Positions 2,885 through 64,000 of a stretch of DNA of 64,000 nt are shown here, in pieces (position 1 is the stretch's first letter; each line of letters opens with the position of its first letter). The position numbers and the translations under genes were made by a program. The DNA comes from Phyllosticta citribraziliensis (lineage: Eukaryota): the NCBI RefSeq assembly GCF_038025025.1, contig NW_027117349.1, positions 124,001 through 188,000 of the forward strand, written 5' to 3'. A model generated the notes under the pieces. It ran no database searches, had not been told where the DNA came from, and saw only the letters and a program-made list of their open reading frames with translations.

Positions 2885-3121
2885 CAGGGCCGCGCCAACT
2901 CGGTTATGCTGACAAGGTCGGCTCCGCTCCGCTTCGCTTTCCAGCCCCAGCGAATGAGAAAAGCCATTAGGGCCCCCGGCTATGCCTCTTTGACCTCCAC
3001 CACCTCTTCTTCCTCTTCTCCCCTCTCCAGTCTGCCACCATTGCGACTTCGCTCAACCCTCACAATTCTACTGCGTCCGCCCTCGTTCTCCCCCGACCTG
3101 ATTGCCCCATCATCGCCCACC

Positions 3122-13631: not shown

Positions 13632-13803
13632 CACAGTGGGTGTCGAAAAATGAGACTCCCACAATCTGTCTGCGGCAACAAATGACTTCTTCCCGAGTAC
13701 ATATGCATTAGTATGAATGCTGCCAAAGCGTAGGCGCAGGGGTGAACGAATGCTCCTCAAGGGCAATCATAGGAGTGAATGAACACTCCCTAGATGCAAC
13801 AAT
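13632..13803. mobile_element. MITE copy 3 (left TIR plus four degenerate ~33-bp units; no right TIR seen)
   Basis: CACAGTGGGTGTCGAAAAATGAGACTCCC followed by units starting near 13672, 13705, 13736 and 13769, the last ending GAGTGAATGAACACTCCCTAGATGCAAC as in the other copies. Confidence 0.75.
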
Positions 13804-42241: not shown

Positions 42242-44354
42242 TCAGTCCTGATGCCGCAGTCGGTTCGTTGCGTACGCGGCCACGCCTGCTGAGAGCGCCC
42301 CGATGAACAGACACACTGCAATCGCATTCGGCCCGTCTCGACCATGGTGCTGAGACCCGGACTGATGCGCCCCCTTGGCCAGCTCTGGACTCTTTCCAGG
42401 CTCCAGCACCGAAAACACCACCCACGAAATAAACGTCCCTACAAACTGTGGCAGCGTCGTAAACAGGTTGAGGATGCCCAAGTACACGCCAGACATCTCT
42501 CCGCTCGACCCGCTCCCGTTCGCCCCACCTTTTGAACTCTCGCCGCCCGCCAGCTCAATGTCGCTGCTGCCGGACACCCGTCGGTAGCCTGCGCCGCTCC
42601 TCTCCGACCCTGCCAGCCGATTGATTTCTTCTCCCATGAGTGAAAACGGGGCCCAGCAAGCAATGGCCCACGATATCCCGTTGATCGCGACGATCGTGGT
42701 CGCATATCTGTACGATTTTGCCAACGGCGCCAGAATCATCGAGCAGGCAAACACGACGTGCGACATTGTCCAAGCCGTCAGTAGGCTTGGCTTGTTCCTT
42801 TCAAAAGCCTCCGCGACCCCCGCCAAGCCGGGCGGAGGGCGAGGCGTAAACTCGGGCTTCACATCATCCGGCTTCCTCACAACCGACGGCAGAACCAGAG
42901 ACCCGACTAAAGTGATGGTCGAGAAGATGATCAGCGAGAGACTCCCCAATCGGCCGATCTCACCGAGCGCATCCGCGGATTGCTGTGCTCCTTTTGGCAG
43001 ATCGTACCGTTTATATATCTCGCCAACCCACGTCGAGGAATAGAACATGAACGGAAAATAGCCTATAGACACGTCAATACTTGTCGTCGGGTTCGTGTTC
43101 GCCGTCTACTTGCCGATCCAAGCCCAAAACTGCACCACACATATGGCCGCAATTCTTGGAGGAAGATTGACCGTAGTCCTGATGAGTTGAGCAAACATGT
43201 CCAACGCTCCAGTTCCTCCAACTTCCTTGCTGTTCATGGTTAGCTTTGTAGAGTTGGATGCACGGTGGGGTTCGAAAGTGCAAGTACAGTTGTACATGAA
43301 TGCTCCTCGGGCGCAGGCGTAGCAGCGAATGAATGCTCCCTAGACGCACTTCTTATGGCCAGGAGGTCGGATTTCTCTCGAAAACGACTGTGGATGGGTA
43401 ATGGAGACTAACCCTTCGTAGACTTTTTCACTGACTGCCCAGCACGTTATGCCCGTGCAAGTCAGCAATGCAATGGCGGCGACGACGATTAGTTGTTTAA
43501 ACTGCGTGTCGCCCAATAGGCTGCCGAAGATGGCTCCCAGGTCGAGAGCACCGCAGCCGTAGCCAATGAGACTGCCGATTGCGACCATGCGAGTGGCTAC
43601 ACAACAGTCAGTAGCGATCTCCGATTGACATCCAGAATCAACGTACCCCATGCTGAGCCCAGCTGCTGTTTGGATGTCGGGAGCACATCAACGATCAAGC
43701 TTCGACCCGAAGCTTGTACTATTCGTATGTCGAGTTAGCCGGCAGGGTCTCGTCATACTCTGGACGATGATTTACCCGAATTTATGGCAAAATCGATGGC
43801 GTATATGCATAGCACAGCTAGCGTGATGGTCACTTTCCGTTTCAAGTCAGGGCTTGACACAAAAACCGAGACGAGCTCCTCAGCCCAGCCCAAGATCAGT
43901 AGCAAAACGGATACGACAACGGCGCCACCAACCATGAACCTGCATTCGTATTAAACTCGATTCTGCCTGGGGCGAGCTGACCAGAGAAGCTTACGGGCGG
44001 CGTCGACCCCATTTCGAGTGACTTTTGTCAGCCAGAATTCCAACGACCGGCTGCATGATGAGACCCGAGAGCGGGCCGGCAATCCAGACCAGAGAGACCA
44101 GAGACTTGGACATGCCGAGCTGGAGGAGGTATGGCGTGCAGTATGACATTTCGACGCCCCAGGTGAACCTGCATTCGAGTTAAACTCGATTCCGCCTAAG
44201 GCGAGCTGGTCAGAGAAGCTTACTGGACGCCGACGATGGAGGCCGTCAAGTAGGCCATACGGATGGACTCTGACTGGCCCTTGATTCCGGGTTGACCGGT
44301 CCATGCTGAGCTAGCCGGAGCCCGCGTTCCTACGCCAATGGCTCCAGTTGGCAT
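42242..44354 (-). CDS. Sucrose / alpha-glucoside:H+ symporter (GPH/SUT family MFS)
   Basis: Spliced translation MPTG...AWTGQPGIKGQSESIRMAYLTASIVGVQ|FTWGVEMSYCTPYLLQLG...VWIAGPLSGLIMQPVVG...SKWGRRRP|FM, and later FYSSTWVGE and GVYLGILNLFTTLPQF. These are SUT-family motifs. Multiple introns. Confidence 0.88.
43261..43392. mobile_element. MITE copy 4, inside an intron of the sucrose transporter, with 4-bp flanking duplication GATG
   Basis: GATG|CACGGTGGGGTTCGAAAG...two units...TTTCTCTCGAAAACGACTGTG|GATG. Confidence 0.8.
43940..44223 (-). repeat. Two near-identical 55-nt spliceosomal introns (43940-43994 and 44169-44223)
   Basis: 48/55 identical without gaps; both GTAAGC...TGCAG; both phase 2; removing both restores a continuous SUT reading frame. 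Confidence 0.9.
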
Positions 44355-46149: not shown

Positions 46150-46329
46150 CACAGCGGGTGTCGAAAGAGAAGGGACCTCCCGGGTCTAGCGAGCAACCAA
46201 CCATGGCTCTCTGGGCGCGTCTGCAATGGCGGACGACTGCTCCCTAAGATTCACTGCAACAGCAGATGAATGCTCCCTGGGTGCAACAATGGCGTGAACA
46301 ATGTCTCATTTCTTTCGACGCCCACCGTA
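46150..46329. mobile_element. MITE copy 5 (complete), with 4-bp flanking duplication CTAC
   Basis: CTAC|CACAGCGGGTGTCGAAAGAGAAG...about three units...TCTCATTTCTTTCGACGCCCACCGTA|CTAC. Confidence 0.8.
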
Positions 46330-62110: not shown

Positions 62111-62262
62111 GGTCGGCCACAAAAGTCGTGGCCGGAGGATCAGTGTCTCCGAATAGGGAGCATTCATACGCTGTGGCGGCAGCTGATGGGGAGCCTTCGT
62201 ATGCAATGACAGCGACTGAAGGCAGTGATTCGGAAGTTGCGTGCGCCACGACTTTTGCGACC
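62111..62262. mobile_element. Possible second MITE type: different inverted termini around the same internal unit
   Basis: Perfect 13-bp inverted repeat CAAAAGTCGTGGC (62120-62132) / GCCACGACTTTTG (62245-62257) with outer GGTCG/CGACC. Encloses TAGGGAGCATTCATACGCTG, the reverse complement of the 33-bp unit core. Confidence 0.45.
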
Positions 62263-62781: not shown

Positions 62782-64000
62782 ATGACGCCCGACGCCGCGT
62801 ATGAACGCTTCCAAGACCCTGAAAAGACCCCTCAACATGGAGAACACATTGAACATGGAGACCACATTCAACAGGGAGACCACAGTCAACATGGAGACCA
62901 CATTGAAAAAACAATCTCCTCATGGCTCGATGGACCAGGCATTGACCCTGAGCTCGACAAACGGATAACGAAAAAATTCGACCGTCACATTGTCCCCTGG
63001 CTGTTCGTCTTGTGGCTCCTTGCCTTCATTGACCGAAGCAACATTGGAAACGCAAGAATTGATGGGCTTACCGAAGACCTTCACCTTGACTCGGACAAGT
63101 TCAACATTGCACTAGCCATCTTTTACGTCCCTTACGTCTGCTACGACGTACCCAGCAACCTCGTGCTTAAGTACTTCAAGGCAGGCTACTATCTGCCCTT
63201 CCTAGTTGGTGCATGGGGTATTATATGCACGTGCACTGGCTTCGTCAAGTCCTACGCTGGGCTTCTGGTCGTGAGGTTCTTCCTCGGACTGGCTGAAGCC
63301 GGAATTCTTGGAGGAATGATCATATACCTCGCCATGTTCTACCGACGTCACCAGTTACTATACCGCATCGGCCTCTTCTACTGTGCCGCCCCCCTGAGCG
63401 GCGCCTTTGGTGGTCTACTGGCCACTGGGCTTGCGAGAATCCACACGCCAGGCTACAACGGTTGGCCGTTTATCTTCTTTGTCGAGGTGCGTCTGACCAG
63501 GGAGCATTCGTCCCGTCCTCCAATTGAATTCATCAACTAACTTTCAAAGGGTGCCATCACGGTCATGGTCGCCTGTGTCACCGTCTTCTTCCTACCGCAC
63601 ACTCCAAGTGACGCCAAATTCTTGACGGAAGAAGAACGCGATGCCGCAATCGCCCGCATGCGCCTCGACTCGCACGGCGCAACACAGTCAGGAGACGTCG
63701 AGTCTGAGACCTTCAGTTGGTTCTGGGTCAGACGTGCCATTCTGAACTGGCAGACCATCTTTCTCTCACTCAACTTCTTCGCCATCATCACCCCCATCTA
63801 CTCGTTTTCTCTCTTCCTCCCAACCATCATCAAGACGCTGGGCTACACATCGGTCAAGGCGCAGCTCTTCACCGTCCCTCCCAACATCGGCGGCTTCTTT
63901 AATGTGCTCCTCGTCGGGCACTACTCCGACAAGCTCAAAGTGCGCGGGCCCTTCATGATCGGCCTCGCCCTCCTCGCCATCATTGGCTATATTATGCAGA
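62782..64000 (+). CDS. MFS anion:cation symporter (Dal5/Tna1-like permease), 3'-truncated
   Basis: Motifs KKFDRHIVPW, AFIDRSNIGNARI, DVPSNL, RFFLGLAEAG, YLAMFYRR, SGAFGGLLA, GWPFIFFVE|G, FLPTIIKTLGY, AQLFTVPP. Intron from about 63487. Confidence 0.92.
62833..62904 (+). repeat. Coding 18-bp tandem repeat x4 (QHGEHI EHGDHI QQGDHS QHGDHI)
   Basis: Consensus CAACATGGAGACCACATT, four consecutive copies. Confidence 0.9.

Follow-up and report, generated by a model that had tools for sequence, protein, structure and literature searches.

The window analyzed here, the whole of a 64,000-nucleotide stretch of Phyllosticta citribraziliensis DNA, carries on its reverse strand a gene for an MFS sucrose / general alpha-glucoside transporter (Table 1). 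The protein shares 93% identity with a P. citriasiana protein and 84% with a P. capitalensis protein. Its second exon matches Pfam MFS_2 (E 5.9e-07), and the best matches to its last exon are sucrose transporters from P. citribraziliensis (100%), P. citriasiana (90%) and P. capitalensis (79%). The database model P0001 probably represents the gene as annotated in this very genome and was left out of the independent evidence. Exon 2 lies between two introns, A and B, and it is the relationship between these two that concerns us. Spliced alignment with a profile of 28 proteins alone recovered both, each in phase 2, along with four further introns; homologous proteins run uninterrupted over both sites. 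An earlier note on this DNA, written from the letters alone, had given the same coordinates, strand, lengths and phase for the pair, and all of these stand.

Table 1. Positions in the window of the transporter gene, its two similar introns and the associated short sequences.
Feature	Position	Strand	Description
Host gene, MFS sucrose / general alpha-glucoside transporter	42242..44354	-	7 coding exons, 553 codons + stop (our model)
Intron A (intron 1)	44169..44223	-	55 nt, GT-AG, phase 2, codon Q44
Intron B (intron 2)	43940..43994	-	55 nt, GT-AG, phase 2, codon P102, GRRRP motif
Exon 2, between donor and copy	43995..44168	-	174 nt; not duplicated
Exon 5-mer GTTCA directly following A	44164..44168	-	
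Exon 5-mer GTTCA directly following B, candidate microhomology	43935..43939	-	same as the 5-mer following A
Perfect 7-bp inverted repeat, 1-nt spacer, over likely branch point of A	44175..44189	-	broken in B
5-bp inverted repeat in A	44193..44203	-	broken in B

Introns 3, 4 and 6 measure 50–57 nt, against 55 nt for A and B. Intron 5 (43412–43230, minus strand) is 183 nt long and holds a dispersed repeat with an internal unit of roughly 33 bp; from its sequence the repeat looks like a small non-autonomous element, and further copies lie in the window at about 578–688, 1949–2027, 13719–13796, 46206–46283 and 62154–62206. Elsewhere in the window an 18-bp unit is repeated in tandem about six times (62814–62921, plus strand; family D2). 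Intron 6 (43113–43063, minus strand) is best aligned as a putative GC-AG intron; in the database models P0001 and P0006 the donor is instead a GT close by and the acceptor also differs, which adds seven residues that homologues do not have.

Four of 24 listed sequencing runs were compared, two of them RNA-like (X2 and X6) and two DNA-like (X14 and X20). Contigs from both RNA-like runs skip A, B and introns 3 and 4, all with GT-AG ends, and at A and B the skip is exact, which confirms the two junctions at the RNA level as the earlier note had proposed should be done. The X2 sequence has zero differences from the window; X6 has six listed differences, all synonymous. A minor X2 contig (depth 11, against 39) additionally splices out a cryptic 100-nt GT-AG intron from exon 3 (43932–43833, minus strand), which has a good branch-point motif; removal of this segment leaves a 7-nt micro-exon directly after B and shifts the frame. 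This splicing was not seen in X6. The DNA-like runs, which are reads of relatives, cover 3 of 30 (X14) and 6 of 30 (X20) bins, and neither spans A or B.

A and B are identical at 48 of 55 bases, ungapped, just as claimed. Their global alignment score is 41. By way of comparison, 243 pairs of introns from the same gene at orthologous loci have a mean score of -8.0 (sd 4.3) and a maximum of 6, while alignment of A or B to the other short introns of the host gene gives scores of -6 to -10. Tandem duplication of exon sequence was considered as a source and rejected: B matches intron A, and no other ungapped match in the 64-kb window is better than 30 of 55 bases. B is an exact copy of A from GT to AG, sits 229 bp from its donor and has the sense orientation; the number of codons is unchanged, the neighboring introns, A and 3, are retained and the copy is now spliced.

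Hairpins had been described in A. Both palindromes are there (Table 1), the longest inverted-repeat arm being 7 nt in A and 3 nt in B, whereas a stable structure of the whole intron finds no support. Folding of A gives a z of -0.43 (58 of 200 shuffled sequences fold as well) and that of B, with both palindromes broken, a z of +1.29. With folding significant in neither intron, a function for the hairpins was rejected. The perfect 7-bp arm of A is nonetheless mildly unusual: an arm of this kind is seen in 68 of 5,000 shuffles (1.4%) and in none of 155 orthologue introns, although the comparison is post hoc.

A DNA search of the organism's own 31.35-Mb genome with E values up to 10 returned two matches, A and B. 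The same search recovered at least 50 copies of the intron-5 repeat at 72–95% identity, some only 44–56 nt long, which shows that it is able to see such copies. Three patterns of 22–24 nt, each allowed as many as three mismatches, matched the whole genome 2, 2 and 3 times, the one candidate for a third copy being a chance match that agrees with the intron at only 21 of 55 bases; a reversed control gave 3 matches. An exact pattern had no match in metagenome contigs. A profile search of an 864-kb sample (2.8% of 31.35 Mb) revealed no third copy, the best other match (E 5) overlapping A itself. In an all-against-all comparison of 1,360 intron-shaped candidates from the same sample no intron family emerged and just two pairs were similar, A/B and one pair in L119. 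The latter pair was rejected as intron copies, given that the similarity extends about 110 nt beyond the intron-like part and thus marks a longer repeat. These L119 sequences (about 5896–5720 and 3537–3360, minus strand, possibly with a third near 3060) are related non-coding stretches of ~170 nt that open with an intron-like segment; they carry a motif that we take to be B-box-like, and ARAGORN found no tRNA in them.

The genome-wide search for further copies that the earlier note had called for thus ends with A and B, and its suggestion of a new introner family is not supported: there are two copies in the genome, of ordinary length and with no stable fold. Like introner-like elements (ILEs) and Introners, B is a precise, sense, spliceable copy at a formerly empty site in a Dothideomycete, with canonical splice signals; those elements differ, according to the accessible text of PMC3609843, PMC4457414 and PMC9860276, in having four or more copies in unrelated genes, where here there are two in one gene. 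The definition available from PMC9860276 is at least four similar introns in non-paralogous genes. ILEs are also about twice the usual intron length and form a stable conserved fold, as the available part of PMC3609843 has it; A and B are 55 nt long without such a fold, and the donor is an ordinary old intron. With regard to the terminal inverted repeats or target-site duplication of Introners of the DNA-transposon type, the longest inverted repeat between the intron ends is 4 nt, and both copies have a 2-nt GT direct repeat, which is not site-specific. The literature within reach of our search (subscription journals and supplements lay outside it) yielded no paper on introners in Phyllosticta, or on this gene. 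A further reading makes A and B the last traces of an introner-like family that has decayed or was always low in copy number: A has its 7-bp arm, the profile search spanned 864 kb of the 31.35 Mb, and Dothideomycetes host such elements (PMC3609843, as far as its accessible text goes). We consider this very improbable. The position of A is common to Pezizomycotina, its sequence is shared with P. capitalensis-like DNA, neither the DNA search nor the three patterns uncovered a third copy, and both introns resemble ordinary ones in length and folding energy.

The history of the two positions can be read from orthologues. Metagenome contigs were scanned and 219 relatives obtained; the best 80 were taken, representing 75 loci, and all 75 were aligned. 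Thirteen of the 75 loci were dropped because they did not cover both sites. Of the remaining 62, six are intronless over the first 300 residues (transcripts or intronless genes) and 56, 46 of them distinct, bear introns. Position A is occupied in all 56 intron-bearing loci and position B in none of the 62. In a tree made by a quick method the loci group with Sordariomycetes, Leotiomycetes, Lecanoromycetes and several Dothideomycete orders, and none of the 75 with Botryosphaeriales.

Two open reading frames (ORFs), P0121 and P0122, each present in two contigs, bring the comparison closer. Over the query, P0121 and the P. capitalensis protein share 99% identity. The ORF begins in exon 1 in a shifted frame, where it fits the P. 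capitalensis protein across 27 codons, reads through a 56-nt intron A, continues through exons 2 and 3 unbroken by B, and stops three residues into intron 3; P0122 has the same pattern from exon 2 onward, likewise without B. The simplest reading is that both are unspliced P. capitalensis-like DNA with A and intron 3 and without B, although RNA that had been spliced in part could give the same picture of a missing B in these two, which are known as ORFs only. Of the 15 leading triplets of the P0121 intron, 13 give the same residue as in A (at least three base changes in 45), which means that the sequence of A predates B. Since position A is ancient, position B is empty in all covering loci and P0121 lacks B, it follows that B was copied from A, and that it was gained once this lineage and that of P. 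capitalensis had separated. A is the ancient first intron and the donor, the direction is from A to B, and the gain is placed within Phyllosticta. Position B is empty in the outgroups, as the definition of an intron gain requires, P. citricarpa-clade DNA being outside the sample. None of 186 short proteins stops at the site of B: 180 pass through by a strict pattern and four by eye, and two lack the motif. This search favors uninterrupted ORFs, and no P. citricarpa-clade ORF of either kind turned up in it.

Accordingly, we conclude, with a probability of about 0.9, that the event was a non-segmental same gene duplication (SGD), in which A was copied into the GRRRP motif, at its Pro codon 174 coding bases downstream, on the lineage that leads to this species from its split with P. 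capitalensis. The features by which such duplications are recognized are all present, namely near-identity confined to one gene, flanking exons that are not duplicated, and ordinary length and folding.

A and B differ at seven positions and by no indel. At positions 14, 26 and 46 the residue in the P. capitalensis-like intron is incompatible with B's base, at 31 it is incompatible with A's, and at 15, 25 and 45 it does not discriminate. B is therefore derived at three of the four informative sites, and each of these three is half of an adjacent pair; six of the seven differences fall into three such pairs (p 0.02–0.05). That B took most of the later changes is suggested by an excess (6:1, p 0.125; 3:1 counted by events, p 0.63) that is not significant. 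Micro-inversion and palindrome correction were considered as causes of the paired changes and gained no support beyond chance; the first changed pair is also a plain double transition. After correction, the distance between A and B is 0.14–0.20, as compared to 0.04–0.07 at synonymous sites for the X6 organism, from which we infer that B predates the split from that organism. The earlier note had proposed a recent intron gain by copying within the same transcript: copying within the gene is supported, now with its direction fixed, and "recent" is to be weakened to a gain within Phyllosticta later than the P. capitalensis split, since which B has drifted by about 13%. A, in turn, may be unusually conserved, which would hint at constraint on its sequence. 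Relative to the P. capitalensis-like DNA it has at least three changes in 45 nt, against at least six in 15 at the end of intron 6 (p 0.005; both counts are lower bounds, the latter taken from gene model P0006), while the comparison to synonymous sites of exon 1 (2 of 26 versus 6 of 21 changes, p 0.12) is not significant.

These data bear on two further explanations. The first is that B was gained earlier, or from another source, and was later homogenized with A by ectopic gene conversion, or else that B is older and was lost in P. capitalensis. The sampled genomes skip the span between P. capitalensis and the other Dothideomycete orders, and a single loss would account for both P0121 and P0122. 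Conversion, however, requires prior homology, and B occurs at none of 62 loci; moreover, with derived bases at three of four informative sites, B has not recently been overwritten by A. The earlier note had held that conversion would be favored if both positions proved ancient and no other copies existed. Only the position of A proved ancient, so conversion between two old introns is disfavored, and we regard this explanation in all its forms as improbable. The second is an artefact of assembly, with B missing from the real DNA. RNA that skips 55 nt looks alike whether an intron has been spliced or was never there, and the DNA-like runs lack coverage of B. Yet the copies differ by seven substitutions and no indel, the splice signals are intact, and at position 31 the P. 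capitalensis-like intron allows B's base and not A's, a state that a mis-joined A would fail to show. We judge an artefact the least probable of all the explanations considered here.

How was the copy made? The exon sequence at the two sites provides some information. GTTCA follows both introns, as had been noted, and the exons are otherwise unrelated, as had also been noted: over wider flanks 9 of 20 bases match, a level found at 86 of 1,636 coding (CDS) sites, and different motifs are encoded. Within the CDS, GTTCA follows 5 of 1,656 positions including the donor junction itself, or 4 of 1,655 without it. The chance of the 5-nt match is thus about 0.002 raw and, given a GT start (4 of 106 such sites; 4 of 516 starting with G), about 0.04, which makes it only modestly significant. 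The earlier note had read the match as a hint of microhomology or target preference. The hint survives at this reduced strength: the match follows in part from the encoded residues (F-T versus F-M), and among orthologues the empty site reads GTTCA more often than anything else (8 of 51), so that it was most likely present before the insertion and probably not copied along with the intron. Between -3 and +5, site B is unique among 1,641 in matching at seven of eight positions, and for three other ranges of flank it is one of 9 of 1,641 sites, all of these ranges having been chosen post hoc. On its 5' side B shares CC-GT with the donor, with one mismatch. One other phase-2 site, at CDS position 851 (last exon, YFPFMF motif, near 43053), has a context like that of B before the insertion and is intronless.

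A homology-guided template switch is one way in which B could have arisen, and we put it at just short of an even chance. A polymerase would leave the target at the 5-nt match with the donor junction, copy the intron and rejoin at the shared GT. In a first variant this would be a repair polymerase working on DNA 229 bp away, a process that resembles microhomology-mediated templated insertion, which is linked to polymerase zeta and clustered errors. In a second, a reverse transcriptase would jump onto the splicing intermediate made up of intron plus exon 2. We add that the physical 5' end of this intermediate is the first G of the intron, from which an exact 5' end would result. All 28 of 28 aligned proteins carry P102, so that selection in the motif would remove imprecise copies and retain exact, spliceable ones only. 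Following insertion, B would gather most of the later changes. The reverse-transcriptase model is named in the accessible portions of PMC3609843 and PMC3443670.

The alternative is reverse splicing, in which a lariat of A still held by the spliceosome would be inserted into the single-stranded DNA of an R-loop trailing the polymerase, or into RNA that is then reverse-transcribed, with recombination limited to a short tract. It accounts for the unchanged codons, and the exact ends, the sense orientation and an insertion site just downstream of the donor are what it predicts without any filter. At 174 nt downstream, the polymerase could sit nearby when A is co-transcriptionally spliced. The R-loop route is favored in the available text of PMC10996645, which cites two intron transpositions in laboratory yeast, and transposition within the transcript is suggested in that of PMC3609843 for the non-segmental half of SGDs. 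On the other hand, reverse splicing predicts no match past the first one or two exon bases, and GTTCA extends further (as at 4 of 106 GT and 4 of 516 G sites); the mRNA route requires a conversion tract that spares both A (174 nt away) and intron 3 (164 nt); and reverse splicing is described in the accessible part of PMC3443670 only into the original position, with a Prp22 mutant. The flank match tilts us toward the template switch, leaving reverse splicing as a possible but lesser contender. Against the template switch, the match is weak (about 0.04) once a preference for GT sites is allowed. The paired substitutions fail to separate the mechanisms.

Same-gene intron pairs reportedly occur in Oikopleura. 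Among fungi, the closest precedent is the survey of Collemare, van der Burgt and de Wit (2013; PMC3609843), whose accessible text describes 82 SGD introns from 24 fungi; their length and energy are those of ordinary introns, and half are non-segmental; at single-gain positions in five species SGDs account for 1 of 1,373. A and B resemble these SGDs in being near-identical introns confined to one gene, of ordinary length and energy, with exons that are not duplicated. They differ in that the survey, in the same portion of its text, gives neither donor nor flank match, whereas here the donor is ancient, the direction of copying is fixed and the branch on which it took place is bracketed. Transposition of introns, whether through reverse splicing or through template switching of a reverse transcriptase, has been counted 14 times, in Mycosphaerella and Oikopleura (PMC3443670, as accessible). 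There, too, the gained intron is homologous to an existing intron and has exact ends; the mechanism is unproven in all cases, and A/B adds a donor-like exon context. The sister stwintrons and cropped sister introns of Hypoxylaceae likewise propagate at low frequency in filamentous ascomycetes, with models of DNA repair under discussion; in the available account (PMC8469720) they are symmetric and present in multiple copies in unrelated genes, in contrast to A/B, a plain U2 intron with one local copy.

The source of most gained introns cannot be traced; in Caenorhabditis, for example, a source was found for none of 168 gains (PMC9169325, in its accessible part). Same-gene copies at proven sites of gain are very rare in the fungal survey (PMC3609843, likewise). 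Copying within a gene is a known but rarely well-documented route of gain, and the present case is better documented than most. A single case settles no mechanism, and this one reveals no new family of elements. With its donor, direction, empty-site sequence and bracketed branch it does supply one data point on reverse splicing versus template switching, for which the discriminating question is this: do the flanks of target sites resemble those of the donor, and do copies fall downstream? A more far-reaching proposal, which we make tentatively and hold to be doubtful on present evidence, is that old introns seed local copies by a template switch guided by the donor junction, that error-prone synthesis leaves paired substitutions in the copy, and that the donor is perhaps constrained and the copy released. 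If true, introns could be gained in this way with no involvement of a mobile element or of reverse splicing.
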